A stretch of DNA of 64,000 nt from an uncultured Mycoplasmatota bacterium (GTDB lineage Bacteria; Bacillota_I; Bacilli_A; RF39; UBA660), in the NCBI GenBank assembly GCA_900543825.1, contig UQSR01000005.1:11122-75121 (forward strand), read 5' to 3'. The position numbers were made by a program, and so were the translations under genes. How positions within the stretch are numbered: the stretch's first letter is position 1; each line of letters starts with the position of its first letter. Under the pieces are notes generated by a model that did no database searches, was not told the origin of the DNA, and saw only the letters and a list, made by a program, of their open reading frames with translations. This document shows positions 12,892 through 62,263 of the stretch, one piece after another.

Positions 12892-13524
12892 TTATTCTTG
12901 ACTTATTAGCTCCGCTATATAGATTGTTTGATGAGTATCATCATCTTTAGTACAGGTAATTAATGTAAGAGTTGTTTTATTTTTATTTCTAAATATTCTT
13001 ACTCGTCCTGTTTTTTCTTCATTATATATATTTGCTATTTTATATATGTATTTGCTATTATTATAATGAATAGTAATTGTATCCTCTTTTTCTAATTTGT
13101 ATAAATTGGCAAAATAACTATTATTATAGTTACCAGAATGTCCCGCTATTATAAGGTTACCATTTGTAACATCAGGATAGCTTGATTCTGGAAGTACATA
13201 TAAATTAAATTTAACATTATTTAGATTTGATGTTTTATCATAAAATCCTTTATATAAACTAATTTTTGGAATATCTATTATTCCTAAATATTCTTCATAA
13301 GTGTAATCATTATTTTCTTCTTTTTGATTTTCATTTGTAGCTTCTTCATCAGTAGTAGTTGTTGCTTGACTTTCTGTAGTATCTACATTTGATAAAGCTA
13401 AATTCATTTCACTAAATACAACATCCCTTTTATCTTTTATATAATCAGATAGCAAAACGAGAGTACCACTTATAACAAGTATTACTCCCGCTGCAATCTG
13501 GTATTTTAAATTATATTTCCCCAT
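12892..13524 (-). CDS. Sortase (class B-like transpeptidase)
   Basis: N-terminal TM anchor, AGHS active-site His context and the TLITC catalytic Cys motif. Overlaps the upstream pilin-like gene by 14 nt. Confidence 0.75.
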   Translation of the reverse strand: MGKYNLKYQIAAGVILVISGTLVLLSDYIKDKRDVVFSEMNLALSNVDTTESQATTTTDEEATNENQKEENNDYTYEEYLGIIDIPKISLYKGFYDKTSNLNNVKFNLYVLPESSYPDVTNGNLIIAGHSGNYNNSYFANLYKLEKEDTITIHYNNSKYIYKIANIYNEEKTGRVRIFRNKNKTTLTLITCTKDDDTHQTIYIAELISQE

Positions 13525-15115
13525 TATTCTTTTTATAGTTTCTGTATATTAATGCAGAACCTAGTCCTATAATAAGTAAACCTATTAAGGATGTTGTAAT
13601 TGTTTTAAATGTTCCTGTACTTGGAACTTCAACAGTTTCAGGTTTGTTATACATAATTACATCACCATCTACTGTTCCATCTTCATTTACTGTAAATGTT
13701 ATTGTTTCTTTAGATAATTCATAACCTTCTGGAGCTAAAACCTCAGTTAATGTATATTTACCAGGTTCAAGTCCTTCGATAACATGTGGTTCATTAGTAG
13801 AAACCCAAGCTTCTATTAACTCGCCTTTCTCATTTCTAAGCTCTAGTTTTGCTCCTGGAAGTTCTTCACCAGTAGTAAAATCTTTTTTACTAATTAATAC
13901 TGACTTCTTAGGTGAGTTATACATAACTACTTTTCCATCTACTGTTCCGTCTTCTTTAACAACGAAAGTAACAGTCTCAGTACTTAATTTATAACCTTCT
14001 GGAGCCATTTCTTCAGTTAATGTATATTTACCAGGTTTTAATCCTTCAATAACATGTGATTCTTCAGTAGATGTCCAAGAATCAACAATATTTCCTTTTT
14101 CGTCTTTTACTGTAAGTTTTGCACCTGGTAACTCTTCACCTGTAGTTGCATCTTGCTTACTGATAACTACTTTTGATATTTTTTCAATATTTAATTTTAC
14201 TGAATCATTAACATATTTTGTTTCTGGATATATTGTAGCAGTTGTTTGGAATCTTGAATGAGTTGGTGTATATAAATATGCTTTATTAATTGTTCCTGAA
14301 CCACTTACTACTACAGAAAATTCTGTTGATAATTGATTGATACTTTTTACTGGTACTTGTACATAGAAAGTTAATCCTTTAGTAAATTTGCTTCCATCTT
14401 TATTAACTATAGTTGTTCCTTCAGGAGCATTTGATGGTTTAATACTATAATCTCCTGTTGTTCCTGATGCTGATATTGTAATTGCATCACTTCTATAATA
14501 TTTTCCATCTTCTGTTAAATGTAATTTATTGCTTTCGGCATTTAATTTTAGAGTTGGATCAGTATAAGAGTAAGATGCTGCTCCTGATACTAATTTATTT
14601 ATCCATTGTACTGCGGTATTACTTTGACCACGATATGTACCATTTGCTATATCAAAATTAGCAAAAATACTATCACTTGGATTAATTAGGTACCAAATAG
14701 CTAAACCAGTAATATAATAATCTTCATCATTATTACCAGTTAAACTCTTATTTGGATAACCGTTTTCCATTACGTATGCATATTTTGCATCTAGTTCTTC
14801 ACTTAAATAATATGTTTCTGTTCCATCTACAACGTCATTTTTTCTTTGCATACAATAAATAACTTTACCATCTGAATTAACCTTATAATAGAAGTGATAA
14901 TTCATTCCTGGAAAATAGTCTCCTCCTGATAATCTATGTAAGTCTCTAAATCTAACTGTATAACTACCAGGGGCAGTTGATTCGGCATTTACTGTTATTC
15001 CTAAAACGGATACTAATGCCACTAATAATGTAAATAAAATTTTTTTGAATTTCATGATATAAAACCTCCCTTTGAAATTGCTTAATATATTATCACTTTT
15101 TCTGTGTTTTGTCAA
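13511..15115 (-). CDS. Sortase-anchored surface protein with tandem Cna-B/SpaA-type (prealbumin-fold) domains
   Basis: Signal peptide and two ~88-aa near-identical repeats (ISKQDATTGEELPGAKLTVKDEKGN... and ISKKDFTTGEELPGAKLELRNEKGE...). The C-terminus has VPSTG, then a hydrophobic TM segment and a basic tail. Confidence 0.75.
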   Translation of the reverse strand: MTKHRKSDNILSNFKGRFYIMKFKKILFTLLVALVSVLGITVNAESTAPGSYTVRFRDLHRLSGGDYFPGMNYHFYYKVNSDGKVIYCMQRKNDVVDGTETYYLSEELDAKYAYVMENGYPNKSLTGNNDEDYYITGLAIWYLINPSDSIFANFDIANGTYRGQSNTAVQWINKLVSGAASYSYTDPTLKLNAESNKLHLTEDGKYYRSDAITISASGTTGDYSIKPSNAPEGTTIVNKDGSKFTKGLTFYVQVPVKSINQLSTEFSVVVSGSGTINKAYLYTPTHSRFQTTATIYPETKYVNDSVKLNIEKISKVVISKQDATTGEELPGAKLTVKDEKGNIVDSWTSTEESHVIEGLKPGKYTLTEEMAPEGYKLSTETVTFVVKEDGTVDGKVVMYNSPKKSVLISKKDFTTGEELPGAKLELRNEKGELIEAWVSTNEPHVIEGLEPGKYTLTEVLAPEGYELSKETITFTVNEDGTVDGDVIMYNKPETVEVPSTGTFKTITTSLIGLLIIGLGSALIYRNYKKNNGEI

Positions 15116-16177: not shown

Positions 16178-16590
16178 TTTTCTACTTTTAGTTTTACACT
16201 ATCTATAGATAATACTTTTATGTATTCTCCTTTAGAAATATTACTACTACTATAAGCTGACCAAAGCTTACCATCTACTTTTACTTCTCCAATATCATTT
16301 TTGGTGATATCAGAAGTAACTACTCCTTTCATACCAATAATTCGATCTAGATTAGTGCAAACTTTTTTAGTATTAATTTTTTTATATATACTCTTACTAA
16401 TAGGCATTAATATAACACCCACTATTACAAATACTCCTATTTGAATATATAGATTATCTGTAAAAAGAGATATAATCATTGTTAATATTCCACTTATAAC
16501 AAACCAGATACTTATTAGATTTGTTGTTATAACTTCTAATATTCCTAATAGTACTACTATTAAAAGCCATATATATAACATATTTACCAC
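16165..16590 (-). CDS. NfeD-like membrane protein (short form), partner of the SPFH protein
   Basis: Two to three N-terminal TM helices plus a C-terminal OB-fold-like beta region; 13-nt overlap with the downstream SPFH gene. Confidence 0.7.
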   Translation of the reverse strand: MVNMLYIWLLIVVLLGILEVITTNLISIWFVISGILTMIISLFTDNLYIQIGVFVIVGVILMPISKSIYKKINTKKVCTNLDRIIGMKGVVTSDITKNDIGEVKVDGKLWSAYSSSNISKGEYIKVLSIDSVKLKVEKWED

Positions 16591-16716
16591 CTACCTATTT
16601 ATATGTTAATTATATGTATTTATTTCCTTTCTTTTATTATAACAGAATATTATTATTTATTCTATATTTATTTACAATATTTTTAATCTTTGTTATAATT
16701 GTTATGGAGGATGAAT

Positions 16717-17427
16717 ATGGGGACAGATTATATTAGTTTTTTATTTCAAATTATGGCTTGTTTTTTACTTAGTGCATGCATTGGTGTTGAAAGACAATAT
16801 AGAAGAAGAAACGTTGGTCTTAGAACTATTATTTTAGTAAGTTTAGGTTCTTTTCTATTTGTTAGGTTTTCTTTTGCTTTTCCAAAGTCAGATATGACGA
16901 GAGTGGCCGCTCAAGTAGTAGCTGGTATTGGTTTTTTGGGAGCTGGAGTAATCATAAAGGATGATAAATCTGTTAAGGGACTTACTACTGCTGCTACGCT
17001 ATGGTGTAGTGCTGCTATTGGTATTCTTTGCTCAGCTAACTTAATTTTTGAGGCTGCTATTGGTACAGTACTTATACTATTTACTAATATTATCTTAAGA
17101 AGCGTCAATAGTAAAATTAATTTTTTAAGTGGTAATGTTAATTATAATTTATATCATTATACTATTGTTTGTGAGGAAAAAAACGATAGTAGTTTACTTA
17201 AAATTATTAAAGAAATAGTACGAAAATATAAAATTTCTATTAAAAGTTTAGAAACAAATGATTTAGAAAATGGTAATGTAAAAATATCGCTTTGTATATT
17301 AAGTAATTGTGCTAATGATAGTTTTAGTAGTGAAATTATGCAGAAGTTATCTGAAAGACGTGATGTTATTTCTATATCACTTAATAAGGAAGATGGAAAG
17401 TTTTTATACGAAGAAGAGGAATTATAA
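16717..17427 (+). CDS. MgtC/SapB-family membrane protein
   Basis: LSACIGVERQYRRRNVGLRT MgtC motif. Start chosen at the ATG with a GGAGG RBS 6 nt upstream, a TTATAAT -10 lies just upstream, and the ORF-track TTG start at 16699 is less likely. Confidence 0.7.
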   Translation: MGTDYISFLFQIMACFLLSACIGVERQYRRRNVGLRTIILVSLGSFLFVRFSFAFPKSDMTRVAAQVVAGIGFLGAGVIIKDDKSVKGLTTAATLWCSAAIGILCSANLIFEAAIGTVLILFTNIILRSVNSKINFLSGNVNYNLYHYTIVCEEKNDSSLLKIIKEIVRKYKISIKSLETNDLENGNVKISLCILSNCANDSFSSEIMQKLSERRDVISISLNKEDGKFLYEEEEL

Positions 17428-17440
17428 AAATATCTAGTAT

Positions 17441-18121
17441 TTATAATTTAATAATACTAGATATTTTTTTTATTACTTTTTTTTCTATTCTGGATATGTA
17501 TGATTGTGAAATGCCTAACATATTTGCCACCTCTTTTTGAGTCATTTCTTTTTTTCCATTTAAACCATATCTTAATTCTATTATTTCTCTATCGCGGTCT
17601 TCTAATTTTGATACTTCTTGATACATCATATACTTATCTAATTCTTCTTCAATAGGTTTAGTAACTATATCATTGTCAGTACCTAGGACGTCCTCTAAAT
17701 GTAATTCATTTCCTTCTGAATCAAAGGATAGTGAATCTTCAAATGATACTTCAGTTCTTTTTCTTTTAGTTTTTCTTAAATACATTAGTATTTCATTATC
17801 TATGCATCTAGAAGCATAAGTTGCTAGTTTAATGTTTTTATCATTTTGATAGGTGTTTACTCCTTTTATTAAACCTATCGTACCAATAGATACTAAGTCT
17901 TCTAAATCTATTTTTGTGTTTTCATATTTTTTTGCTAAAAAAACTACTAATCTTAGGTTGTGTTCTATGAGTTTATCTCTTGCTTTCATATCTCCATTTA
18001 AAAAGAGATTTATATATTTTTCTTCTTCCTCTTTTTCTAGTGGTTCTGGTAAAATATCTGTACTTCCAACGTAGAATAAGTAATTTAATTTACTAAATAT
18101 TTTTCTTAATAATTTTAACAT
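17441..18121 (-). CDS. sigE: Sporulation sigma factor sigma-E precursor (pro-sigma-E)
   Basis: N-terminal pro-sequence, then YVGSTDILPEPL and NLRLVVFLAKKYENTKIDLEDLVSIGTIGLIKGVNTY, and KLATYASRCIDNEILMYLRK. This aligns closely with Bacillus SigE and follows spoIIGA directly. Confidence 0.85.
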   Translation of the reverse strand: MLKLLRKIFSKLNYLFYVGSTDILPEPLEKEEEEKYINLFLNGDMKARDKLIEHNLRLVVFLAKKYENTKIDLEDLVSIGTIGLIKGVNTYQNDKNIKLATYASRCIDNEILMYLRKTKRKRTEVSFEDSLSFDSEGNELHLEDVLGTDNDIVTKPIEEELDKYMMYQEVSKLEDRDREIIELRYGLNGKKEMTQKEVANMLGISQSYISRIEKKVIKKISSIIKL

Positions 18122-18125
18122 GTTA

Positions 18126-18866
18126 TCACCCTTTCATTAAGTCTTTATGTAACAATACTTCGACACCATTTATTGTACTAGGACTAGAAGAGAATGCCAC
18201 TAGTAAATTGTTTTTATACCCTATTTTTTCAATATATACTTTTTCAGGCTTTATACATTTTAGTAGTCCTTCTCCATTAATTGTATGATATGGTACTAGA
18301 ATAAATTTATCTTCTTTTTGATACTTTTTGTCTACGAGAATTATTGGTCTTTTTTTATATGGATCATATAAATTGTTTCCGGTATCTAGAAATCCTATTA
18401 ATGATATTTTTTCTTTATCTTTAAAATATATGTCTACTTTATAATAATTATTATAAGTGTTTTTTATTTTCTTATTTTCTTTTATATATAGTGTCATTAC
18501 TTCAATAGATAGTACTATTATTACTAAGTAATTTAAATAGATATTTAATGTTACCTTGGAATTGAACAAATATATTAGTCCTCCTAATAAGATGCTTAGT
18601 ATGTATGTATATAGGATATTGGTTAAGAAATATCTTATATTTTTATACTTAAATGCTATTGTTACCATTAGTATTATGGTTATTAGTTCTAATAATAATC
18701 TATTTATACTTGTAAATAACATAAGAGATGATAATCCTCCTAATAAAGATGATATTAGTATTCGTTTATAGGTAGTATTTCTTTTTAATAATATACTTAC
18801 AGAGGTTATGATTATTATATCCATAATGGTATTAAATAAAAAAAATAAATCAATATATATTCTCAT
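18126..18866 (-). CDS. spoIIGA: Sigma-E processing aspartic protease SpoIIGA
   Basis: Multi-TM N-terminal half; C-terminal FLDTGNNLYDP aspartic-protease motif (cf. DSGN in Bacillus SpoIIGA); position immediately upstream of sigE. Confidence 0.7.
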   Translation of the reverse strand: MRIYIDLFFLFNTIMDIIIITSVSILLKRNTTYKRILISSLLGGLSSLMLFTSINRLLLELITIILMVTIAFKYKNIRYFLTNILYTYILSILLGGLIYLFNSKVTLNIYLNYLVIIVLSIEVMTLYIKENKKIKNTYNNYYKVDIYFKDKEKISLIGFLDTGNNLYDPYKKRPIILVDKKYQKEDKFILVPYHTINGEGLLKCIKPEKVYIEKIGYKNNLLVAFSSSPSTINGVEVLLHKDLMKG

Positions 18867-18913
18867 ATATTGATTATAAAAAAAAGAATATAAATATTTT
18901 GTCGATTTATATT

Positions 18914-19129
18914 CTATTCAAATACTTTATTTTCGTCTCCAGCGCAATATCCCTCTCCGATTTTTTTGCCTTCAACATATTCTTTACCAGAAATATTACA
19001 GCCCATTTTAGTAACGGCATCTTGAAGATAGCCTCCAAATGCCTTTACTGCTCCTATTGCTATTACAGTAATTAAGGATATGATAAGTACATACTCTACA
19101 AGGGTTTGTCCTTTTCTATTTAACTTCAT
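18914..19129 (-). CDS. Flp/Fap-type (type IVb-like) pilin
   Basis: 71 aa. Leader MKLNRKGQTLVEYVLIISLITVIAIGAV matches the Flp G/xxxxEY processing motif followed by a hydrophobic helix. Confidence 0.5.
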   Translation of the reverse strand: MKLNRKGQTLVEYVLIISLITVIAIGAVKAFGGYLQDAVTKMGCNISGKEYVEGKKIGEGYCAGDENKVFE

Positions 19130-19198
19130 ATTTCCACCTCACGTATTATTAAATATATCTAAGATAATTGTACTATATTTTTTTGAATATTGCAAGTA

Positions 19199-19591
19199 CT
19201 ATTGACAATTATAATCAAAGTCATATGTAAATTGTTTAGTTTGACAATTAAATGTTACAGATACTTCTTTGTTTGTTAAATCATCATTATTTATTGGATT
19301 TTTTATATCACCATCTATTTTTCCAGCCTCTATTAGTTTAGATATAGAAATTTTTATGGTATTTGATATAGGAATTTCTATGTTTTTATCACAAGTGAAA
19401 CCTAAATCATATTTATTTTCATTTACATAGAGCTTAGTGGCACTAATGATATTCTTTTTTAAACTTTCACATGATTTTTGTTTATTTATAGATATCATAT
19501 TGATTACATTAGGAACTAAAATCATGGATATTATTGCAATTATGGCTATTACCATTAATAACTCTATTAAAGTAAATCCTTTTTTATTCAT
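19199..19591 (-). CDS. Prepilin-type (ComGC/PilE-like) pseudopilin
   Basis: MNKKGFTLIELLMVIAIIAIISMIL is a class-III signal (G|FTLIE with Glu5); 130 aa with a Cys pair near the C-terminus; AGGAG RBS. Confidence 0.6.
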   Translation of the reverse strand: MNKKGFTLIELLMVIAIIAIISMILVPNVINMISINKQKSCESLKKNIISATKLYVNENKYDLGFTCDKNIEIPISNTIKISISKLIEAGKIDGDIKNPINNDDLTNKEVSVTFNCQTKQFTYDFDYNCQ

Positions 19592-19605
19592 AAATACTCC
19601 TATTC

Positions 19606-19782
19606 TTAACCATTGGAACTATTAGAAGTAAAATAGTCTTCTTCTAAGTCTTCAGTTATTTTATCTATATTATTTTTTTTAGAGGATAATATTGCTAAAT
19701 ATGTACTTGTAAGTACAACGAATAGTATTAGTAATCCATATAAAACGCTAGTTATAGCAAATCCTTTATTATTTAATTTCAT
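19606..19782 (-). CDS. Unannotated 62-aa prepilin-like small protein (atypical: no Glu at +5)
   Basis: Not in the ORF track (below its size cutoff). ATG with a GGAGG RBS 7 nt upstream. MKLNNKGFAITSVLYGLLILFVVL is pilin-like, and its stop lies 12 nt before the next pilin's RBS. Confidence 0.4.
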   Translation of the reverse strand: MKLNNKGFAITSVLYGLLILFVVLTSTYLAILSSKKNNIDKITEDLEEDYFTSNSSNG

Positions 19783-19792
19783 TGGTACCTCC

Positions 19793-21064
19793 TTAGTAAG
19801 TGATTATTTTTTTATCTGTATTAACTAATTTATCTTTATCTGTTTCTTTTATTACAATTGTATCTGGATTTCCATCAGATATATATTTGGTACTTTTTAA
19901 CATATTAAATACCATGGCTATATCAAATTCTTTACCATTATTGTCATAGGCACGACATCTTTTTAGAAAGGTTTTATCGAAGTTTTTATCAAAGCATGAT
20001 ACTTCTGGTTCCCATCCTACTCTTAAAGCGGCTTCTGTAATATAATTTTTATCGTTGTAATTTGTTGATAATACGTATTTAAAATTGGCGTTATCTTTGC
20101 TATATGGACTACCAAATGGAAGTGCTATTATTTTTACATATTTATTAGGAATTGTTTTTTCTAATTCGTCATATACATAGGCTATTTCTTTTTGTACTCT
20201 TTCAGGAGTTGATTTTTTGATATCTAAGTGAGTTTGTGTATGGTTGCCAATGTCATAGCCATTTTCTACCATCCATTTTAATATTTTTTCGTTATATTCG
20301 CTCTGATTGAATATACCTCCATTAACAAAGAAGGTGGCGGTTACTGTAACATCTTTGTGATTTTTTTTGAATTCTTCAAGTATACCAACTGCACTGTCTT
20401 TGTCAATAATTATATTGCCATTATCATCTAAGCCTGTTACTTTTATATTATCTTCGTTTCCATCATCAAAAGTGATAATGATTGGGCTTTTACCATATGA
20501 TGCTGTTACTTTACCATTGATGTAGTCCTCTAAACGAATCATTTCATATCCATTCTCGTAATAGTATTCTAAATCTTTTCTGAATGCTTCAGGAGTTCTA
20601 TTGTAACCGTCTTTGTCAACGTTACCTCCTACTGTTCCTGTACTATTTGCGGTTTTTTCTCTAATACCATGATACATCATTATTGGTACTTTACCTAATT
20701 CGTTAATATTGTCACTAGCTAGTTTTTCTTTATCTAATTTTCCTAATGAGATTACTACATCTAATTTCATACCTTTATCTATTTTAGTATTTTCTTTTAT
20801 ACTTTGTGATATTACTTTATCTTTGGGAATATCATCACTATAGTCATATGTTATATTGGCTTCTAGTGAATACTTTGATACTAGTGTATTTACTTCGGTA
20901 ATATCGTTTAATTTTGGCATTAATTCTTCTTGATGCTTATTGTTTTTTTGTATTACTTTAAATACTACTATTAATGCTAATACTATTATTATAAATAGTA
21001 TCAATGCTATTTTACCTACATTGGAATTTTTTTTATGTCTACTCATATATATCCTCCTATTCAT
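19793..21064 (-). CDS. Polysaccharide deacetylase (NodB-homology domain) membrane-anchored protein
   Basis: N-terminal TM, TFDDGN and DIGNHTQTH NodB motifs. Confidence 0.8.
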   Translation of the reverse strand: MNRRIYMSRHKKNSNVGKIALILFIIIVLALIVVFKVIQKNNKHQEELMPKLNDITEVNTLVSKYSLEANITYDYSDDIPKDKVISQSIKENTKIDKGMKLDVVISLGKLDKEKLASDNINELGKVPIMMYHGIREKTANSTGTVGGNVDKDGYNRTPEAFRKDLEYYYENGYEMIRLEDYINGKVTASYGKSPIIITFDDGNEDNIKVTGLDDNGNIIIDKDSAVGILEEFKKNHKDVTVTATFFVNGGIFNQSEYNEKILKWMVENGYDIGNHTQTHLDIKKSTPERVQKEIAYVYDELEKTIPNKYVKIIALPFGSPYSKDNANFKYVLSTNYNDKNYITEAALRVGWEPEVSCFDKNFDKTFLKRCRAYDNNGKEFDIAMVFNMLKSTKYISDGNPDTIVIKETDKDKLVNTDKKIITY

Positions 21065-21141
21065 AAGTTAATTATAATATATTTTTGATGATTTTGGAAG
21101 ATATAATATAAAAATATAGTACAAATATGTATGTACTATAT

Positions 21142-22125
21142 TTAATTATTTCTTAAATAGTCTACTGCTTCATTAAAATTATCAACTTTAATTATATTTA
21201 ATTTATAGTTGTATTTTTCTTTTGTTTCTATGGCTTCTTTATAATTAGCGGATGGTACGAAAACGATATCCATTTTATCCTTGGCTGCACCCATTATTTT
21301 ATATTTTATACCATCTATTTCTCCTACTGAACCATCAGCGGAAATGGTACCTGTACCTGCTATATTTCTTCCTTTTATGATATCTTCATCGCTTATAGCA
21401 TTATATACTGTTAATGTTAGCATTAATCCACCTGAGGCTCCGGCTTCGCTACTTTTGAATTTTATATCTACTTTTGGATCAAGGTCATATTCATATTCTG
21501 TTATTATTATTACGCCTACTGCTTTAGTATTGTTTTCATTAGATATTTTACTTGTTACTTTCATTTCTTTATTATTTCTTAAAATGGTAAACTCTACAGT
21601 ATCATCTATATTTTTAGATGATATTATTTGTTTTATTTCTTTAATATCTTCGCATTCTATATTGTCTGCTTTTAAAATTATGTCACCAACTTTAAGTCCG
21701 TTTTCCTTAGTAGTGGCTATTACAATATTTGTTTTTTTCTTTATATCTATCTTTTTGTTGGCACTTGTATATGCTACCATAGTGGCTATATCTAAAGAAT
21801 TATCACGCATTATTTTGTTTCTTTCTTTTACTTCTTCTACTGTTTCGTTAGATATTCTTCTTGTAGATTCTTTTTCGATATCCCAATGTTTTAATTTGGC
21901 TACTATATATGTTCCAGGAGTTAATTCATATTCACTTACATATAGCATATTTAAACTACCATCTTTATTTTTATCATAGTTCTGCATTACTACCCTGTCG
22001 GTTATATTTATTGTTCCTCCAGGAGCCATGGCATAATATGGTAATTTTATATATAAGCATATTACTAGAATTAATAGTGTTATTAAAAATTTGTAATTTT
22101 CTTTTATAAAATTTTTTATTTTCAT
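21142..22125 (-). CDS. YlbL-like membrane-anchored PDZ + Lon-type (S16) protease-domain protein
   Basis: N-terminal TM, PDZ-like GLKVGDIILKADN, and a Lon C-terminal-domain SEAGASGGLMLTL segment. Confidence 0.65.
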   Translation of the reverse strand: MKIKNFIKENYKFLITLLILVICLYIKLPYYAMAPGGTINITDRVVMQNYDKNKDGSLNMLYVSEYELTPGTYIVAKLKHWDIEKESTRRISNETVEEVKERNKIMRDNSLDIATMVAYTSANKKIDIKKKTNIVIATTKENGLKVGDIILKADNIECEDIKEIKQIISSKNIDDTVEFTILRNNKEMKVTSKISNENNTKAVGVIIITEYEYDLDPKVDIKFKSSEAGASGGLMLTLTVYNAISDEDIIKGRNIAGTGTISADGSVGEIDGIKYKIMGAAKDKMDIVFVPSANYKEAIETKEKYNYKLNIIKVDNFNEAVDYLRNN

Positions 22126-22166
22126 TATATCACCCTTATTATTTTTTTCTATGTTATATCATATAA

Positions 22167-23102
22167 TTGATTATGAAAAAATATTCTAACCAAATTATAG
22201 TGATTGTTACTTTTATTATTTTAATACTTATTTTTTTTAATAAGTCACTTGTATCCGATACTATTATTTCTTCTTTTTATATTTGGTTTAATACTCTTGT
22301 ACCATCAATGTTTCCTATGTTTGTTACTTCTAATATATTAATTAGTTATAATTTTATTATGTATATACCAAAAGTCATTACTTCTTTCTTTAGTAAGTTA
22401 TTTAATATTAGTAAGGAAGCTGTACTGGTTCTATTTATTTCTTTAATAGCGGGATTTCCGAATAATGCAATGGCAATTAGATCTTCTTATGATATGAAAC
22501 TTATTTCTAAATTAGAAGCTGAACATCTTCTATTAATATGTCATTTTGCTAATCCTTTATTTGTATTAGAAACAATAGGTGTCTTTTATTTAAAGAATAA
22601 TATGTATGGAATTATTATTCTTGTTTCACATATATTATCTAATATAATAATTGGTATTATCTTTAGAAATAAGAATATTCCTACTAGTGATAATTATATA
22701 TCGAAAAAGACTAATTGTCAAAGTTTTGGTGCTTTATTTTCTCTTAGTATTAAAAAAAGTGTAAACACACTTTTTATGATATCTGGGATTGTTACTTCTT
22801 TTTTAATTGTTAGTACTTTGGTATGTCATATTTTTGCTTTGGATGATTATTTATCAGTACTTGTTAAGGCAGTCTTAGAAATGACTATGGGGTTATCTTC
22901 TTTATCGTTACTTAATATTAGTGACATTTATAAAGTTATAATTTCTTCGATGATTATTTCTTTTGGAGGACTGTCTATTCATATGCAGGTTATTAGTATT
23001 TTAGATGATAAAATTAGATATCGTAATTATTTTATTGGGAGATTATATCAAGTTTTTTTATCTATAATATTTTCGGCTATGTTTTTTAAGTTATTTGCTT
23101 AA
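22167..23102 (+). CDS. YlbJ-like sporulation integral membrane protein (nucleoside-recognition/Gate-type domains)
   Basis: Polytopic membrane protein of the size and topology of YlbJ, adjacent to the ylbL-like gene. Confidence 0.55.
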   Translation: MIMKKYSNQIIVIVTFIILILIFFNKSLVSDTIISSFYIWFNTLVPSMFPMFVTSNILISYNFIMYIPKVITSFFSKLFNISKEAVLVLFISLIAGFPNNAMAIRSSYDMKLISKLEAEHLLLICHFANPLFVLETIGVFYLKNNMYGIIILVSHILSNIIIGIIFRNKNIPTSDNYISKKTNCQSFGALFSLSIKKSVNTLFMISGIVTSFLIVSTLVCHIFALDDYLSVLVKAVLEMTMGLSSLSLLNISDIYKVIISSMIISFGGLSIHMQVISILDDKIRYRNYFIGRLYQVFLSIIFSAMFFKLFA

Positions 23103-24008
23103 TCTTTTTATCTTTTGTTTATATACTTCAGTATTGTCTTTAATATCATAGTTTAATTCATCACTAACATAGGAAAATATATCGGGTATAAGATTAATTG
23201 CTTTGGTAAATATATGATATCCTTCATTTATTTCGTTTATGGTATATGTTTTTTTTTGGTATGAATCTATTAGCCAATTGGTAAACACTTCATATAGAAA
23301 TAAGTTTATTTCTAGAAGAGGAGGAATTATTTTTTCTTTATTGGTATTATTTTGTTTACTTTGTAATACCAAATCCATATTATATAAAAATCTACCAATG
23401 GCGGTATAGGTTGTATATTCTTTTAGTTTTGTTACTAAATGATATAGATCTGCGGTAAAGTATAGATTTTGCATTTCTTTCTTTCCTATTACTTTTTCTA
23501 TAATAATGGATAATATTGCTTCATACTTATATCCAGATGTGGCTATACTGGCTCCGAAAAAGTGATTATTTAATGCTTCTGTATATCCTTCATTTAATGC
23601 ATAACTAATATTGGCTTTATTGGTTATTTGGTTGAAACCTATATGATATTCTTTATTATTGTGACTACTACTGGCCATATGTAATAATTCATGATTAAAG
23701 GTATTATATGGATTTAAATCGTTAGGTGGAAATATTTCTATAATGTTTTTGTCTGGTAAATAATGTCCTGCATCTTTATTTAGTTTAAGTTTAGTTAATA
23801 TATCATCTTTATATTTTATTGTCAGAGTTGATATGTTATTATAAAAGTTGGTTAATTCATTTTCTGTTAAATTCTTTTTTAGGACATTATAAAAGGAAGA
23901 TACAAAAGGACGATGGATGGGTTTTATATTATCAAATACTTCTATTTTTTGTGGACTGGTTGGGATGATTGCTTTGGCTATTTTAACTGTTTTTATCTCT
24001 TTATTCAT
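23091..24008 (-). CDS. Hypothetical protein with HExxH zinc-metallopeptidase-like motif
   Basis: HELLHM motif mid-protein; no other recognisable domain. Confidence 0.4.
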   Translation of the reverse strand: MNKEIKTVKIAKAIIPTSPQKIEVFDNIKPIHRPFVSSFYNVLKKNLTENELTNFYNNISTLTIKYKDDILTKLKLNKDAGHYLPDKNIIEIFPPNDLNPYNTFNHELLHMASSSHNNKEYHIGFNQITNKANISYALNEGYTEALNNHFFGASIATSGYKYEAILSIIIEKVIGKKEMQNLYFTADLYHLVTKLKEYTTYTAIGRFLYNMDLVLQSKQNNTNKEKIIPPLLEINLFLYEVFTNWLIDSYQKKTYTINEINEGYHIFTKAINLIPDIFSYVSDELNYDIKDNTEVYKQKIKRLSK

Positions 24009-29103: not shown

Positions 29104-30397
29104 CTCCCCGAATAAAGTGCAAATTGTTTGCACCATCACTTCACAGTGATGAATTTCTGTTTCTTGGAAACTACACTTAGCTTCGTCCACAGACTTAAAT
29201 TCCGATAAGTGCTACCGTACTTTATTTTTACTTTAAAGAAATTTTGTTCGTTATTGACATTCATTATTGATACCTGGAATATACTTTCTTCATATATAAT
29301 TTTAGCCCTTCAAACATGATATTTATACTTGCATTTAAATCTCTATCTAATGTGTTTTTGCAACATTGGCATACATAGTCTCTCTCATTTAAGTTCTTGT
29401 ATTTTTTATCTATATTATCACAAACACTACAGGTTTGACTTGATGGATAGTAGGTATTTATTTTGAAAAAGTATTTACCTTTTTCTTTAGACTTGTATTC
29501 TAGTTGTTTTAGTATTTCTCTAAATGTTGCATCATTTATTTTTTTTGATAGATTTATGTTTTTGTCCATAATCATTTTTTTAATATTTAATGATTCGGTA
29601 ATTATTATATCATAATTATCGGTTATTTCTTTTGTTATTTTATGAATGTAGTATTTTCTGGCATTGGATAATTTGCTATAGAGTTTATTTAATCTTTTTA
29701 AATTTTTGTAATAGTTTTGACTTCCTTTATTCTTTTTGGATAATTTATAGTGTTCTCTTTTTATTTGTTCTTCGTATTTATTTATATATTTGTTATTATC
29801 ATACGATGTATTATCTGACATTGTTATTAGTTTCTTTATTCCTAAATCTATTCCTACTATTGTATTTGGTTTTCTTTTTGATGGTTCTGGCAATTCATAT
29901 AATATACTCACATAATATTTGCTATTTTTATCTTTCGATATTGTTACGTTTGTTATTTTGCCATTTATTTTGGTGATATTTCTATAGCCTCTTATTTTTA
30001 ATTCTTCTAATTCTGGTAATTTTATTGTTCTACTAATTAAATCTAATTCTATATTACAGTATTTATTGTAAATAGCTTTAATTGTATAACTATTTTTACC
30101 ATATTTGCTTCGATATTTTGGATTACTAATTCCACTGTTGAGATGTCTTTTATAATTATCTTGTAGATTGAATATTGTTTTCTTGATAAGCAATGGATTG
30201 GCTTCTAGTAAGAAAGGATATTCATATTTTAATTTATTTGTATAATCTTTAATACAAGAATAGGCGTTTATATATCCTTCGCTAATTATTTTTCTAAGAT
30301 AATAATTATATACAAATCTATTACATCCAAAAGTTTTATTTAGTTTTTGTTTTTGTGTGTCACTTGGATATATTCTAAATTTATATGCTTTATACAT
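29104..30397 (-). mobile_element. IS200/IS605-family tnpB-only element (IS1341-like); boundaries approximate
   Basis: Intact tnpB with a structured ~160-nt 3' region (hairpins GTGCAAA..TTTGCAC, CATCACT..AGTGATG, GTTTC..GAAAC), typical of an omega-RNA scaffold. No Y1 (HUH) tnpA is present. Confidence 0.4.
29264..30397 (-). CDS. tnpB: RNA-guided endonuclease TnpB (OrfB, IS200/IS605 family)
   Basis: MYKAYKFRIYPS...QKQKL..FGC.RFVYN N-terminus; split RuvC residues (IVGIDLG D, IIITESL E, DRDLNASINI D); C-terminal Zn finger CSVCDN...CQCCKN; 377 aa. Confidence 0.85.
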   Translation of the reverse strand: MYKAYKFRIYPSDTQKQKLNKTFGCNRFVYNYYLRKIISEGYINAYSCIKDYTNKLKYEYPFLLEANPLLIKKTIFNLQDNYKRHLNSGISNPKYRSKYGKNSYTIKAIYNKYCNIELDLISRTIKLPELEELKIRGYRNITKINGKITNVTISKDKNSKYYVSILYELPEPSKRKPNTIVGIDLGIKKLITMSDNTSYDNNKYINKYEEQIKREHYKLSKKNKGSQNYYKNLKRLNKLYSKLSNARKYYIHKITKEITDNYDIIITESLNIKKMIMDKNINLSKKINDATFREILKQLEYKSKEKGKYFFKINTYYPSSQTCSVCDNIDKKYKNLNERDYVCQCCKNTLDRDLNASINIMFEGLKLYMKKVYSRYQ

Positions 30398-36313: not shown

Positions 36314-36880
36314 TTATTCTTGCTTCATACTAGCTGTACAGCGTACAGTAGCTTTTATTGTTTCCCCTTGTACTTCATAATCGTTTATATTGTTTTCATC
36401 AAACCATAAGTATACTTTGTAAGTGGTGCTTGTGGTGCTAAGCGGTATGTTTGTTGCTATTAGTTTTGATGTTCCTGCTGAAGTTCCTTTCATACTGCCT
36501 GAGGATATTATGGTGTTGCCACTTACAACGGTATATTTTAATGCATCGCTGTTCTTTAATTTATCCCCTATTGAGGTAACATCCATATATATGTGTCCAT
36601 ATATGTCATATGTGTTATCTTTTTTATATAATGTTATGGTAATGTTATTTCCTCCTGTATATGTAGATGATGGATTTATGGTACCACGCGTTATATCAGT
36701 ACCTTTATTATATGTTATATAATAATCTAATCCTTTAGTAGTTGTGTTTACATTTAAATCTTCGAATAGTATACTTGTGAAATAAGCTATACTTCCCCCT
36801 AGTAGTCCTAAACATAGGATGGTTAGTCCTGATATTATTAATATTTTTTTCTTCTTATCGTATTCCATGTTATTCCTCAC
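36314..36880 (-). CDS. Secreted protein with SipW-cognate-class signal peptide (TasA/camelysin-like superfamily candidate)
   Basis: MRNNMEYDKKKKILIISGLTILCLGLLGGSIAYFTS: hydrophobic core ending in the AYF(T/S) motif characteristic of SipW-dependent signal peptides; 188 aa. Confidence 0.45.
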   Translation of the reverse strand: MRNNMEYDKKKKILIISGLTILCLGLLGGSIAYFTSILFEDLNVNTTTKGLDYYITYNKGTDITRGTINPSSTYTGGNNITITLYKKDNTYDIYGHIYMDVTSIGDKLKNSDALKYTVVSGNTIISSGSMKGTSAGTSKLIATNIPLSTTSTTYKVYLWFDENNINDYEVQGETIKATVRCTASMKQE

Positions 36881-38952: not shown

Positions 38953-39867
38953 CTAACTTATTACATAATCTCTAGTATATATTCTGTTATCGCTTGAATA
39001 TTCTATATAATAATGATTATCACGCCTAGATATAATAATACCTATTGTTTTATCTTGATTAATACTTTTAATATGTTTATCTATATAATTCATATATACT
39101 TCTATTTGTCCTATATGTTCTTTCTTTAGTTCACATACTTTTAATTCTATTACTATAAAACAATTATAAATATAATTAAATAATAATAAGTCTATATAAT
39201 TATAAGTATTACCTATTTTTATTTTGTATTCATTTTCTATAAAACTAAAGCCATCTCCAAGTTCTTTTAAAAACGATGGTATATCTTCGAGTATCAATCT
39301 TTGAAGCATCTTCTCAGAAATATTTTCTATATCATAATTATATTTATTCTTAATAACTATTGGATTCTTAATAAAATCACTTACGTTAACTTCTTCTTTA
39401 TTAATTAGTTTTAATTTAGCATTATCGTCTAATCTTTGATATTCTTTATTTTTAATTCTTTCTCTCAATTCTCTTACACTCAAATTATAACTTTCTATTA
39501 TAGATATATAATAATTAATTTCATTAATATCATTAAACTTTAGAATTTCTTTGTAATGGCTCCATGTTAATTGGTCCGACAGTGTAGGACTTTTTTCATA
39601 CAATATATAAAACATTCTCATATATTTAAGTGAAGTTATAGAATACTTTTTCCCCAAATCTTTTGTTAATCGCTCAGAGTATTCTTTAATTAAGCCATCA
39701 CCATATTTTGCCCTATTTTCACCACCTTGTGCTTCAATTAACAATCTACCAACTTCATAATAAGTACTAATCTCATTTCTATTCTTAGAATAATCTTTTA
39801 CTCTTTTATATACTTCATTATCTATTAATTTACTTTTAATCTCATTATAATAATTAATTTTATTCAC
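38953..39867 (-). CDS. DUF1016 (YhcG-like) protein with C-terminal PD-(D/E)XK nuclease fold
   Basis: N-terminal YYEVGRLLIEAQGGENRAKYGDGLIKEYSERL...MRMFY (DUF1016_N); C-terminal IDLLLF ... VIELK PD-(D/E)XK-like motifs. Confidence 0.6.
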   Translation of the reverse strand: MNKINYYNEIKSKLIDNEVYKRVKDYSKNRNEISTYYEVGRLLIEAQGGENRAKYGDGLIKEYSERLTKDLGKKYSITSLKYMRMFYILYEKSPTLSDQLTWSHYKEILKFNDINEINYYISIIESYNLSVRELRERIKNKEYQRLDDNAKLKLINKEEVNVSDFIKNPIVIKNKYNYDIENISEKMLQRLILEDIPSFLKELGDGFSFIENEYKIKIGNTYNYIDLLLFNYIYNCFIVIELKVCELKKEHIGQIEVYMNYIDKHIKSINQDKTIGIIISRRDNHYYIEYSSDNRIYTRDYVIS

Positions 39868-41911
39868 CTTCCTTCATAATTGCAGTACGAACTCTAACTT
39901 TACTTTTATTAATCTTGATATTAATACTTCCATCCAAATCAGTTCTATATATTTTTGAATTGTTTAAATTTTCTAATACTTCTTCGTTAGGATGGCCATA
40001 TATATTACCTTTCCCCAAAGATATAAGTGAAATTTTAGGAGTAATACAATCTATAAAATCTTTACTACTACTAGTCTTAGAACCATGATGTCCTACCTTA
40101 AAAAAAGTAATATCCGAAAGATTATATTTAGACATAATATAATCCTCAACATTACTAGAGGCATCCCCCATAAACAAAAACTTATATTTCAAATATTCAA
40201 AATAAATAACATTACTATTATCATTTTCATTATCAAATATCTTATCATTAAGAAAATATAAATATATACCATGAATATCAATTTTATCACCAAAAGTATC
40301 ATATCCAATGTCCTTATCCTCAAAAATATCAATAGCTTCTTCTTCAAATAACGATTTATCACCTCTATTAAAAATAACCATATCTACCCTAAAATTATCA
40401 GTAAGATTAATAAGACCACCAATATGATCCTTATCACCATGACTAATAATAACATAATCAAGTTTTCTAATCCCTCTGCTTTTCAAATACATTATAATAT
40501 TATTCTTCATAATAGAATACCCATCATCTTCCCCAGTATCAATAAGAATATTACCACCATTATTAGGAAAACTAACAAGATACGAATCACCCTCTCCAAC
40601 ATCAAACATAGTAATCTCTAAATTATTATTAAAATAAGGATAAATATAATGAATTAAAGTAACTAAAATAAACAAATATATAAACCTCTTATATCTATAA
40701 ATACCATAAATAATAACAAAATATAAAATAACTATAATAATACTAGGTTTGCAAAAAATAAATCTCATAAAAGAAATATCATTCAAAAAGAAAGATATAT
40801 CCTCTAAAATACTAGTAAAGAAAAACATAATACTATCACATATAGGAAAAAACAAAGTAATAATAGCAAGTGGAATCAAAATAACACTAACTATAGGTAC
40901 AATTAAAACATTAATAATAATACTAAAAACATTAACCTCATAAAAATAAAATACAGTAATAGGAAAAGATACCAAAAAAGATATAACAGAAGTATAAACT
41001 ACCTTAATAAAATAATTTTTATTTTTATATTTATCATAAAAAAGAATAAGAAAAAAACTAATTAAATAAGAATAAATAAAACCAATATCATAAATAATAA
41101 AAGGATTAATAAAAATAGCGATAACTAAAGTAAATAACATAATATCAATTTTATCAATTTCCAATTTAAAAAAATAATTAATACTACTAAGTATAAACAT
41201 AATACAGGCTCTAAGTAAAGAAGAAGTATATGAAAAAATCAAATAAAATATAAGAAAAATATCACTAATAAAATATTTAATACGTTTATTATAAGTAATC
41301 TTATCCAAATAAATATATAAAATACCAATAATAAGATTAATATGCATACCACTTATAGAAAACAAATGACTTATACCATTAATTCTATAACTTTCCTTAA
41401 TATCACTAGAAAGACTATTATCTCCAAATAATAAAGTCTTAATATAATTACCAGACTTAAATTTATTAACCCTATCATATAAAATATTTTTCAAAGTATA
41501 AAAATAATTACTATTATTTTCTATCTTATTAATACTACTAGCCTTAACTATATAAAATATCTTCCTATTATATAAATAATCTTTATAACTAAAAGAGTTA
41601 AATATAGTACTATCCATAGGAGTATATAACTCTCCTTTAACAAGAAGTTTATCACCATAAAGAAGTTTATCAAAAACCAAATTATTATAACTATAATTAA
41701 CAATTAATACCTCTTTAGCCTTAAGCGTAATACTAATCTTACCATCACTAACTTTATAATCAGTAACAATTCCCACAAAAGTATCATCGTCTTTTTCATA
41801 ACAAGATTCAAATTTATAATAACGCGTAAACAATATCGCTCCTATTAAAAAAATTAAAGCTAATAACTTAAATAAATATTTAAACTTTAATATACATCTT
41901 AATCTTTTCAA
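39860..41911 (-). CDS. comEC: DNA internalisation competence protein ComEC/Rec2
   Basis: 683 aa: N-terminal OB/DUF4131-like region, multi-TM competence domain, C-terminal metallo-beta-lactamase fold (ISHGDKDHIGG). Confidence 0.85.
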   Translation of the reverse strand: MKRLRCILKFKYLFKLLALIFLIGAILFTRYYKFESCYEKDDDTFVGIVTDYKVSDGKISITLKAKEVLIVNYSYNNLVFDKLLYGDKLLVKGELYTPMDSTIFNSFSYKDYLYNRKIFYIVKASSINKIENNSNYFYTLKNILYDRVNKFKSGNYIKTLLFGDNSLSSDIKESYRINGISHLFSISGMHINLIIGILYIYLDKITYNKRIKYFISDIFLIFYLIFSYTSSLLRACIMFILSSINYFFKLEIDKIDIMLFTLVIAIFINPFIIYDIGFIYSYLISFFLILFYDKYKNKNYFIKVVYTSVISFLVSFPITVFYFYEVNVFSIIINVLIVPIVSVILIPLAIITLFFPICDSIMFFFTSILEDISFFLNDISFMRFIFCKPSIIIVILYFVIIYGIYRYKRFIYLFILVTLIHYIYPYFNNNLEITMFDVGEGDSYLVSFPNNGGNILIDTGEDDGYSIMKNNIIMYLKSRGIRKLDYVIISHGDKDHIGGLINLTDNFRVDMVIFNRGDKSLFEEEAIDIFEDKDIGYDTFGDKIDIHGIYLYFLNDKIFDNENDNSNVIYFEYLKYKFLFMGDASSNVEDYIMSKYNLSDITFFKVGHHGSKTSSSKDFIDCITPKISLISLGKGNIYGHPNEEVLENLNNSKIYRTDLDGSINIKINKSKVRVRTAIMKEGE

Positions 41912-42527
41912 ACAAAGAATCCCCTATACCATCTACATTCTTAATATCATCTATAGAATTAAAATTACCATTCTTATCTCTATATTCAATAATAGCTTTA
42001 GCCTTACTTCTTCCAATACCTTTAATATCCATAAGTTCATCTATATTAGCAGTATTAATATTAACAAGTTCATCATCTTCATTATTATCACTAATACATG
42101 CATCATTACTAATATCAGGGCAATCACATACACATACCTCATTTTTATATTTCTCTAAAATTTCTTCATTAGAATAAATAATAATAGTCATTTCATCACT
42201 AACTACTTTAGCCAAATTAATCTTACTAGTATCAGCTCCATCAAGTAGTCCTCCAGCGGTTTCAATAACATCATTAACCCTAAAACTACTAGGAACCTCA
42301 TATACACCAGGATTAACCACCATCCCCTTAATATCCACTATTACAGTATTAGTATCATCTTTCATCTCTTCTATTATATCATCATTACTATTATTATCAC
42401 TATCATCTTTTTCTTTAAAAATATCTACCACATCATCACTCTTACTATAATTATTTTTATATAAAACAAAAATAATACCTCCAAGTATAAAAGAAATACC
42501 AAGTAAAATAAAAATTACCTTCTTCAA
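41880..42527 (-). CDS. comEA: Competence DNA-binding protein ComEA (membrane-anchored HhH)
   Basis: N-terminal TM, SLBB-like middle region, C-terminal tandem helix-hairpin-helix (NINTANIDELMDIKGIGRSKAKAIIEYRDKNGNFNSIDDIKNVDGIG). Confidence 0.8.
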   Translation of the reverse strand: MKKVIFILLGISFILGGIIFVLYKNNYSKSDDVVDIFKEKDDSDNNSNDDIIEEMKDDTNTVIVDIKGMVVNPGVYEVPSSFRVNDVIETAGGLLDGADTSKINLAKVVSDEMTIIIYSNEEILEKYKNEVCVCDCPDISNDACISDNNEDDELVNINTANIDELMDIKGIGRSKAKAIIEYRDKNGNFNSIDDIKNVDGIGDSLFEKIKMYIKV

Positions 42528-43981: not shown

Positions 43982-43993
43982 AAAAATAACCTC

Positions 43994-46516: not shown

Positions 46517-46599
46517 ATCTTCTACCTCATACTAATTATAACATTTTTAGACAATTTTTGCTATACAAATAAGTAAAATTATAAAATAATACATAATAA

Positions 46600-46635
46600 A
46601 TGTAAAAAAAGAAATAACAATATACATTATTTCTT
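46600..46635 (-). terminator. Rho-independent terminator after the 225-aa gene
   Basis: AAGAAATAA-CAATATACA-TTATTTCTT hairpin; the minus strand continues with TTTTTACAT. Confidence 0.5.
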
Positions 46636-46647
46636 TTAAAAGTAAAT

Positions 46648-47325: not shown

Positions 47326-47400
47326 ATATAATATATTTTATCGTCATATATAATAAAAGTAAATATTATTTATAAATTTTACAAATAAATCATACATAAG

Positions 47401-47430
47401 TGTAAAAAGAATCTATCAAAAGATAGATTC
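47401..47430 (-). terminator. Rho-independent terminator after the 444-aa surface-protein gene
   Basis: GAATCTATC-AAAA-GATAGATTC hairpin; the minus strand continues with TTTTTACAC. Confidence 0.55.
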
Positions 47431-47435
47431 CAAAA

Positions 47436-48770: not shown

Positions 48771-48828
48771 TTTTTCCCTACTTTCTATACTATACTCATC
48801 ATAACATATAAAACAAATTTTAGCAATA

Positions 48829-48870
48829 AAAATTCAAAAAAGTAGAAGAATATTAATACTCTTCTACTTT
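48829..48870 (-). terminator. Rho-independent terminator of the 558-aa pilin / 153-aa partner unit
   Basis: 11-bp stem AAAGTAGAAGA-(10-nt loop)-TCTTCTACTTT overlapping the 153-aa gene stop; the minus strand continues with TTGAATTTTT. Confidence 0.55.
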
Positions 48871-50984: not shown

Positions 50985-51070
50985 CTATCCTAAGACTAAT
51001 TATAATATATTTTAAAAAAAAAGAAAAGACCATTAACAAAATAAATGTTAATAGTCCTATATAATAAGTA

Positions 51071-51493: not shown

Positions 51494-51495
51494 TT

Positions 51496-58032: not shown

Positions 58033-58051
58033 ATCTCTTTCCTCCTTAAAA

Positions 58052-62249: not shown

Positions 62250-62263
62250 ATCCTTGTAACATG

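Follow-up and report, generated by a model that had tools for sequence, protein, structure and literature searches.

Three pilin-like genes beside spoIIGA-sigE in an uncultured gut bacterium: a probable junction of two conserved modules

Layout of the locus

The locus described here lies on contig UQSR01000005.1 of an uncultured gut bacterium, inside a stretch of 64,000 nt that is called the window and whose positions serve as coordinates throughout. Its minus strand carries three consecutive small genes for prepilin-like proteins, named orf58, pil130 and flp71, directly upstream of spoIIGA and sigE. A preliminary description made from the sequence alone had reported such a row of three, and all three open reading frames (ORFs) were confirmed. 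The first, orf58 (19606-19782, minus strand), starts with MKLNNKGFAITSV... and encodes 58 amino acids (aa) from its ATG, not the 62 aa originally given. It is followed by pil130 (19199-19591, minus strand), which encodes a canonical type IV pilin of 130 aa with the leader MNKKG/FTLIELL, and by flp71 (18914-19129, minus strand), which encodes a predicted Flp/Tad-type (type IVc) prepilin of 71 aa with the leader MKLNRKG/QTLVEY (slashes mark the predicted cleavage sites). The division into one Flp-type protein, one canonical type IV pilin and one protein without Glu5 also held in motif and profile comparisons.

Hidden Markov model (HMM) searches bore out the neighbours as described. Upstream lie ylbL, coding for a SepM/YlbL-like S16 protease (21142-22125), and pda, coding for a PASTA-domain polysaccharide deacetylase of the peptidoglycan type (19793-21064, minus strand; PF01522 60 bits, PF03793 31.6 bits). 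Downstream are spoIIGA (18126-18866, minus strand; PF03419 152 bits) and sigE (17441-18121, minus strand; NF006158 323 bits, just below the cut-off of 339). From the deacetylase gene through orf58, pil130 and flp71 to spoIIGA the gaps measure 10, 14, 69 and 47 nt. The packing is thus as tight as had been claimed, with a range somewhat different from the 12-70 nt reported.

With a G+C content of about 27%, the organism belongs to the uncultured reduced-genome Bacilli of the gut (RF39/RFN20-like). Exact copies of the proteins are present on human-gut metagenome contigs, and the exact flp71 protein is indexed in 5350 blocks of the sequence collection. Species-level relatives are metagenome-assembled genomes labelled "uncultured Bacilli", "Tenericutes" or Clostridium sp. 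CAG:302, CAG:762 and CAG:914. These features fit the uncultured orders RF39, RFN20 and ML615J-28, in which sporulation and peptidoglycan have been lost repeatedly (PMC10868615).

The three ORFs are not chance ORFs: they are conserved and under purifying selection, as seen from low ratios of nonsynonymous to synonymous change (dN/dS) and from large homologue families. The dN/dS of orf58 against the related locus L010 is 0.18 (L-numbers name individual loci of the comparisons below). For flp71 it is 0.05-0.15, with synonymous sites near saturation, which is only slightly looser than sigE (0.03-0.06); the deacetylase gene gave 0.07 and spoIIGA 0.10-0.26. There are 756 homologues of flp71, nearly all of about 71 aa, 513 homologues of pil130, and 566 representative clusters of the orf58 family.

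Identity of the three proteins

The pil130 protein (MNKKGFTLIELL) passes both the N_methyl model PF07963 (33.0 bits, cut-off 21.2) and TIGR02532 (34.6 bits, cut-off 16.3). It possesses Glu5 and four Cys, and its AlphaFold model (predicted local distance difference test, pLDDT, 85) consists of the alpha-1 helix and three beta-strands. It is a canonical alpha-beta type IV pilin. The label ComGC-like, under which it had been introduced, was rejected. The ComGC equivalog model NF040999 aligns to residues 3-59 only, with 44.1 bits against a cut-off of 75. The ComGC fold is purely helical (preprint 10.1101/2020.02.12.945410) whereas beta-strands are predicted for pil130, and the genes around it are those of the deacetylase, orf58 and flp71, not a comG operon.

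Within the species pil130 is hypervariable, with more than 100 alleles at 80-100% identity and with insertions and deletions in two loops. The portion that differs between strains is the C-terminal half: nucleotide identity drops to 76-85% only at 19200-19400 and is 96-100% on either side. The nucleotide sequence of the species representative (L009) agrees with that of the window at 100% in orf58, in flp71 and in the 3' end of the deacetylase gene, whereas the two pil130 proteins share only 76% identity. Over 18800-20200 the neighbouring genes show 15-26% synonymous difference from L009, and tracts of 100% identity flank pil130 where the surrounding sequence reaches 88-96%. A mosaic of this kind points to recombination around a variable pilin. 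Judging from the placement of the changes, it is most likely that exposed loops of pil130 vary between strains, in keeping with exposure at the surface. Such a protein could be a strain marker, or a target of phages or of immunity.

A prepilin motif scan of the window returned exactly five prepilin-like genes. The remaining two encode giant prepilin-type proteins of 558 aa (49308-50984, minus strand) and 1124 aa (51496-54870, minus strand), which combine PF07963 with PF09479, the Listeria-Bacteroides repeats. Both share the leader NNKG/FTLIELL and the pilin module with pil130; over the first 105 or so residues of pil130, identity to the N-terminus of the 558-aa protein is 37%. Probably the giant prepilins are handled by the type IV machinery that also serves pil130. 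The exact 1124-aa protein was absent from the exact-match collection, as was the product of the last ORF of the window, and L094 encodes a counterpart of 1124 aa. The two genes belong to a cluster for large surface proteins (42680-54870) that also includes cadherin-like beta-sandwich proteins of 433 and 444 aa and an 840-aa SH3/cadherin-like/dockerin protein. Another set of surface genes (12892-15115), about 4 kb from the pilin genes, consists of a sortase (210 aa) and a 534-aa protein with TED and SpaA domains, a candidate sortase substrate because the two genes are adjacent.

The ribosome-binding site of orf58 (GGAGG, 5 nt upstream) abuts the stop codon of the deacetylase gene. Its leader ends in Gly (MKLNNKG/FAITSVLYGLLILFVVL), and a hydrophobic helix some 20 aa long comes next. 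Position +5 is Ser, and family members have Ala, Ser or Gly there but in no case Glu. Neither orf58 nor the N-termini of 26 family members were matched by any Pfam or NCBIfam model, N_methyl included. The HMMER family counted above was collected at E ≤1e-3, and 102 of its clusters remain at E ≤1e-10. All matches span residues 1-55, in proteins of 40-522 aa whose C-termini are variable and in some members belong to DUF6273 or Flg_new. G7, F8 and Y15 are invariant, the first two in 100% of 148 representatives. In the profile comparison, orf58 is moderately similar to the pil130 and flp71 families (hhalign probability 67-70%). By these sequence features orf58 appears to be the minimal member of an unmodelled family of pilin-like proteins that lack Glu5, a feature of minor pilins that form the tip or act as initiators.

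In a scan of 80 metagenome loci centred on orf58, the PASTA-deacetylase gene ends 11-15 nt upstream of the orf58-like gene in 76, and a pil130-like gene directly follows in 73; in the seven others the contig breaks off within about 500 nt. So tight and conserved a pairing is what would be expected if orf58 were not a pilin at all but a membrane-anchored partner of the PASTA-peptidoglycan deacetylase, its KGF motif being a signal-anchor feature only. The absence of Glu5 and of a match to the N_methyl model, and a profile similarity that is just moderate, are also in accord with such an anchor. However, orf58 has the very leader that this genome's N_methyl pilins have, G7 and F8 do not vary among the representatives, and a canonical pilin gene nearly always comes next. 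The layout of the family is that of pilins too, with a conserved N-terminal helix and variable C-terminal domains, among them the Flg_new domain that is also found on the giant pilins. A plain partner of the deacetylase is accordingly kept as a minor possibility, and the assignment to the pilin-like family is preferred.

The flp71 protein (MKLNRKGQTLVEY) carries the processing motif of Flp pilins, defined as G/xxxxEY (PMC3244431); it reads G/QTLVEY and is evident from the sequence itself. Among 21 aligned family members K6, G7, Q8, T9, L10, E12 and Y13 are invariant, so that KGQTL-EY is the family signature together with two invariant Cys, C44 and C62, which lie in an extra C-terminal segment of about 20 aa. 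Relatives occur in 457 species genomes of uncultured reduced-genome gut Bacilli. The orthologue in L036 scores 20.1 bits on the Flp_Fap model PF04964, and some homologues have a precomputed match to that model. The family profile aligns to two solved Tad pilins, 8U1K (E 7.6e-6) and 8U2B (E 4.9e-5). These alignments begin at mature residue 2, and cleavage is therefore placed between G7 and Q8. In the AlphaFold model one long helix (residues 5-47) is followed by a short C-terminal hairpin; a Foldseek search with this model gave nothing significant.

In five species (L034, L036, L040, L059 and L074) the flp71 orthologue is the first gene of a tad operon. It is followed by TadE (PF07811), a TadE/G-like protein, a ParA-type TadZ, a T2SSE ATPase corresponding to TadA (211 bits) and two T2SSF proteins corresponding to TadB and TadC. 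Together with the motif and the profile alignments, this points to flp71 as a pilin of the Flp/Tad type.

Gene order and signals at the junction

The cassette of deacetylase, orf58 and pil130, of which the deacetylase gene is the first, usually has ylbL upstream. A gene for flp71 follows it in 13 of the 60 loci with enough sequence, and all 13 represent the window species or its nearest relatives. The pairing of deacetylase and orf58 is also kept in L045, L091 and L092. In L153 the cassette is followed by ORFs which, judged from their sequence, are probably SepF- and DivIVA-like. The idea that pil130 and orf58 are a species-specific insertion was overturned by the metagenome scan, since the cassette is conserved elsewhere in other species.

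A second comparison, centred on flp71, covered 80 species loci. The order flp71-spoIIGA-sigE was found in 26 of them, of which just two, the window species and L010, have orf58 and pil130 too. Upstream of flp71 these 26 loci are highly diverse, with rpsO-pnp, comEA-comEC, transketolase or a DUF285-like leucine-rich repeat protein among the genes seen. Elsewhere flp71 stands after murG-murB-ftsQ and is followed by nfeD-band7, hrcA-grpE-dnaK or lon; it also stands after an F-type ATPase-like operon or at the head of the tad operons. These varied contexts therefore indicate that flp71 is retained where spoIIGA-sigE is not adjacent.

Some neighbours of flp71 in other species were considered as further pilus genes and set aside. 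The 148-aa and 69-aa genes upstream of it in L021, L023, L045 and L073, taken at first for pilin analogues, encode instead a SirA-like protein and a small membrane protein. SirA is a sporulation inhibitor of replication. Their counterparts in the window (57823-58507) come after transketolase, the SirA-like gene at 58052-58507 (PF10747 on the L094 counterpart) and the 69-aa gene at 57823-58032; in L021 and L023 the whole trio of transketolase, SirA-like and 69-aa genes is directly upstream of flp71. The ORFs upstream of flp71 in L035 and L039 showed no similarity to T2SSE or T2SSF and were discarded as pilus machinery. Large proteins of one cluster (C4) adjoin flp71 in many species, and relatives of them at 36314-36880 of the window and in L025 (7983-9479) have N-termini that end in ...GGSIAYFTS or ...VAYLTWSS, which resemble a SipW-dependent signal of the TasA/camelysin type.

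Since flp71 and the cassette mostly occur apart across loci, they are regarded as two separate modules. What had been presented as one set of three pilin genes appears, from this comparison of loci, to be the junction of ylbL-deacetylase-orf58-pil130 with flp71, after which spoIIGA-sigE follows. The three proteins might nonetheless build one hybrid type IV filament together: flp71 would be its major subunit, pil130 and orf58 would serve as minor or tip subunits, and one peptidase would recognise the (N/K)KG leader that all three share. The genes are adjacent here and all three leaders are of the form MKLN-x-KG or NKKG. A pil130-like gene lies directly after flp71 in L082 and after two inserted ORFs in L083, and L045 has an orf58-like gene after flp71 and a deacetylase gene. 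Most species, however, keep the modules apart, the tad operons of relatives use minor pilins of the TadE type and not N_methyl pilins, and the pilin module of pil130 recurs in the two giant N_methyl proteins but not in flp71. A common filament is thus distinctly unlikely, and two modules remain the preferred interpretation.

The adjacency of flp71 to spoIIGA is best read from the comparative data as inherited, ancestral synteny in a compacted remnant of the cell-division (dcw) region, and not as a functional operon. Both pilin modules presumably sit among remnants of the ylb-dcw-spoIIG-ylm region known from B. subtilis.

The signals around flp71 lead to a similar picture. A promoter scan placed a putative sigma-A-type promoter of flp71 (TTGCAA-17 nt-TACAAT) at 19195-19167 on the minus strand. 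A promoter is kept at the same position in most contexts, as TTGCTT/TTGCAA-17-TACAAT or TTGACA-17-TATAAT, and many relatives have a perfect TTGACA-17-TATAAT. The exception is the ATPase context, in which the ribosome-binding site alone, and no promoter, lies between the preceding ORF and flp71.

A terminator-like element follows flp71 at 18914-18878 (minus strand). It starts at the G of the flp71 stop codon and consists of a 10-bp A/U stem (18914-18905 with 18895-18886), a 9-nt loop and a run of eight T (T8; 18885-18878). The standard terminator scan requires at least 3 G-C pairs and missed it; the hairpin was spotted by eye and tested by covariation. Over 21 species 95% of the alignment cells are paired, three pairs show compensatory changes and two show G-U changes. 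The loop opens with five invariant bases (CGACA), and its other four are free to vary. An Rfam scan of 16500-23500 found no riboswitch or other RNA family. The c-di-GMP riboswitch, a kind that lies upstream of C. difficile pilA1, was specifically absent from that interval.

The T8 run leads into an invariant TATAAT, and the conserved spacer element measures about 50 nt. The putative spoIIGA promoter (18864-18906, minus strand) comprises a Spo0A-box-like TGTCGAT (plus strand, 18900-18906), 21 nt, TATAAT (18878-18873), 6 nt and the ATG of spoIIGA (18866-18864). CGACA, TATAAT and the ATG are all invariant in the 21 species. Read on the opposite strand, CGACA is TGTCG, the core of the Spo0A box TGTCGAA, and spoIIGA is a target of Spo0A in Bacillus and C. 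difficile (PMC3485338). Because the ATG comes 6 nt past TATAAT and spoIIGA has no Shine-Dalgarno sequence, its mRNA is possibly leaderless. The spacer between flp71 and spoIIGA is 47-61 nt long in all loci but L033, where 245 nt are inserted between flp71 and the CGACA/TATAAT element, and the element stays beside spoIIGA.

The preliminary description placed the small genes in an operon leading into spoIIGA-sigE. With a conserved promoter of its own, a hairpin with T8 behind it, and a 0A-box/TATAAT element that lies downstream and segregates with spoIIGA, flp71 is instead probably its own transcription unit. By the same signals spoIIGA-sigE is probably a separate unit with a Spo0A-type promoter.

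Those signals also bear on the suggestion of a sporulation-associated fibre, in which flp71 would be a sporulation- or division-linked fibre or membrane protein co-regulated with spoIIGA-sigE. The recurrent gene order, with its near-fixed spacer (L033 apart) and overlapping signals, is what speaks for this suggestion; flp71 adjoins division genes in other contexts too (murG-murB-ftsQ), and it is conserved at the level of the sigma factor. The promoter of flp71, however, is of the housekeeping type and not one for a sporulation sigma factor, and the Spo0A-box element lies downstream of the gene and segregates with spoIIGA. The gene is kept beside nfeD-band7, hrcA-grpE-dnaK, lon or the ATPase operon, away from spoIIGA-sigE, which fits the repeated loss of sporulation in these orders (PMC10868615), and it opens the tad operons of five species. 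A sporulation fibre is consequently very improbable. The fallback offered beside it, that pilin genes were simply placed at this site, comes close to what the comparison shows.

Assembly and proposed role

Taken together, the locus is best explained as two independently conserved, ordinary pilin modules side by side, not a sporulation fibre, with the adjacency to spoIIGA-sigE as ancestral gene order; a probability of about 0.7 is attached to this explanation. The eye-catching neighbourhood of pilins and a mother-cell sigma factor would then be inherited gene order and not a functional operon.

Several observations weigh against this explanation. The flp71 protein stays below the thresholds of both PF04964 (23.3 bits against 32.2), the model by which its Flp assignment could have been supported as N_methyl supported that of pil130, and PF04021 (22.2 against 23.7). 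It is also far more conserved than is usual for exposed pilins. The hairpin behind it is weak (-7.4 kcal/mol, z -1.7) and read-through into spoIIGA is possible. As to orf58, the protein could be a plain membrane anchor and not a processed pilin.

In at least 14 species (L042, L044, L051-L053, L058, L063, L065, L069, L071, L072, L075, L081 and L086; for example L044:4345-10219), flp71 is found directly 3' of an eight-gene F-type ATPase-like operon and is apparently co-transcribed with it, which the pilin assignment does not explain. The genes of this operon encode a c subunit, a 254-aa protein, alpha-like and beta-like subunits, an 83-aa protein, a 176-aa membrane protein, a gamma-like subunit and a 56-aa ORF. 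The order differs from that of the standard atp operon and recalls the F1-like clusters of mycoplasmas.

Finally, no gene for T2SSE, T2SSF or a prepilin peptidase was found in the window, in the flanks up to about 10 kb past each end, or in the loci outside the five with tad operons; of this genome, which measures at least about 1.1 Mb, the search covered roughly 85 kb. Of the machinery that had been proposed for a genome search (tadA, tadZ, tadB-tadC and a peptidase), tad genes thus turned up in the five relatives, where they are linked to flp71, and none in the window or its flanks. TBLASTN searches with the Tad proteins against all 175 loci matched only the five tad loci, and a homologue search with the L036 TadA retrieved only close relatives of L036 (79-100% identity), not this species.

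Assembly in this organism would proceed as follows. The deacetylase, orf58 and pil130 genes, with their short gaps, would be read together. The major subunit of a Flp/Tad-type pilus, flp71, would be expressed from its own strong housekeeping-type promoter in a transcript that ends at the A/U hairpin and T8. The precursors would insert into the membrane, and a prepilin peptidase would cut after the conserved Gly (G7/Q8 in flp71, G5/F6 in pil130, G7/F8 in orf58), after which the hydrophobic N-terminal helices would polymerise. For flp71 this would be the work of a TadA/TadB/TadC platform, and for pil130, orf58 and the two giant pilins that of a PilB/PilC- or ComG-type machine, both presumably encoded elsewhere in the genome. 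Two pilin classes in one place had been called unusual. Several type IV filament systems per genome are in fact common in Gram-positives, and pilin genes unlinked from their machinery are documented as well (PMC3244431).

The role of the fibres is likely to be adhesion or DNA uptake and not sporulation. Transformation depends on Flp in Micrococcus luteus (PMC4322843), and DNA uptake depends on Tad in Liberibacter (PMC8513845). The window encodes ComEA and ComEC (39860-42527), and comEA-comEC is directly upstream of flp71 in L011, L018 and L033. A more far-reaching proposal, which is speculative and unlikely, takes the PASTA-deacetylase/orf58-family/type IV pilin cassette for an unrecognised module of type IV filaments in monoderms. 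A dedicated deacetylase and the Glu5-less "NNKGFAIT" pilin, acting as primer or tip, would jointly make an opening in the wall and start a fibre with variable adhesin domains on display. The conserved Flp pilin would meanwhile serve DNA or nutrient uptake, and in some lineages it would be coupled to the F-type ATPase-like operon and not act as a classical adhesin.

Other features of the window are noted for completeness. Between about 38900 and 40000 the plus-strand GC skew changes from about -0.1 to -0.45 and the AT skew from about -0.2 to about 0, with no change in the strand of the genes, which is minus throughout. At the break stands a DUF1016/YhcG-like gene (38953-39867) beside comEC; in strain L089 three DUF1016 genes in tandem occupy this place, and the genes past them are different. 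It could mark a rearrangement, a replication terminus or an assembly join. A gene of the IS605 OrfB/TnpB type (377 aa) lies at 29264-30397, and a DpnII-type restriction-modification system at 60619-63124 consists of the DpnII endonuclease, a 258-aa ORF (with an N6_N4_Mtase counterpart in L094) and a Dam-like methylase.

Comparison with known systems

Three small genes that are common across human-gut metagenomes can now be named. The pilins are of known kinds, and current understanding is not overturned. By-products of the analysis are a highly conserved Flp pilin with its own putative promoter, found throughout a lineage of uncultured RF39/RFN20-like Bacilli, a Glu5-less pilin-like family paired with the PASTA-deacetylase gene, which deserves a family model, and a compact, possibly leaderless spoIIGA promoter of the Spo0A type. 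Two loose ends are how strongly flp71 is conserved and why some species couple it to the ATPase-like operon.

Known Flp/Tad pilins (Caulobacter PilA, Pseudomonas Flp in 8U1K and 8U2B, Aggregatibacter Flp1) are matched by flp71 in that its precursor is small and its leader short and basic, in having Gly at -1, Glu at +5 and Tyr at +6, in the single long hydrophobic helix, and in orthologues that head tadE-tadZ-tadA-tadB-tadC operons in the five species. It differs from them in its mature length of about 64 aa, whereas the solved pilins have 45 aa, the surplus being the segment with the two invariant Cys. It also differs in its sub-threshold Pfam scores, in its unusually strong conservation and in its genomic setting: flp71 is mostly unlinked from tad genes, and here it stands between a type IV pilin cassette and spoIIGA.

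With ComGC, the major competence pilin, pil130 shares the type of leader, and its best NCBIfam match is the ComGC model; the presence of ComEA and ComEC in the window is a further likeness. Closer are the type IV pilins of other monoderms (C. difficile PilJ and PilA1, those of Streptococcus sanguinis). As in these, pil130 has G/FTLIE with Glu5, an alpha-1 helix with a small beta-sheet, Cys in the C-terminal part, allelic loop variation and reuse of the module at the N-terminus of very large pilins. Unlike them, pil130 has no pilB, pilC, pilD or pilM nearby and sits behind a PASTA-deacetylase gene.

The Glu5-less capping or priming minor pilins (GspK/PilX-type, ComGG) resemble orf58 in the leader with Gly at -1, the hydrophobic helix and the lack of Glu5, and large variable C-terminal domains of the orf58 family are reminiscent of tip adhesins. 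However, no sequence relationship to them is detectable, the family has an invariant Tyr at +8 and is always paired with the PASTA-deacetylase gene, and the copy in the window, at 58 aa, has no globular domain.

The spoIIG promoter of B. subtilis is activated by Spo0A and has a long spacing between -35 and -10. The putative promoter in the window agrees with this architecture in having a 0A-box-like heptamer 21 nt upstream of TATAAT, in front of spoIIGA-sigE. It departs from it in that the whole element fits into 47 nt, overlaps the hairpin and T-run of the upstream gene and places the ATG 6 nt after TATAAT.

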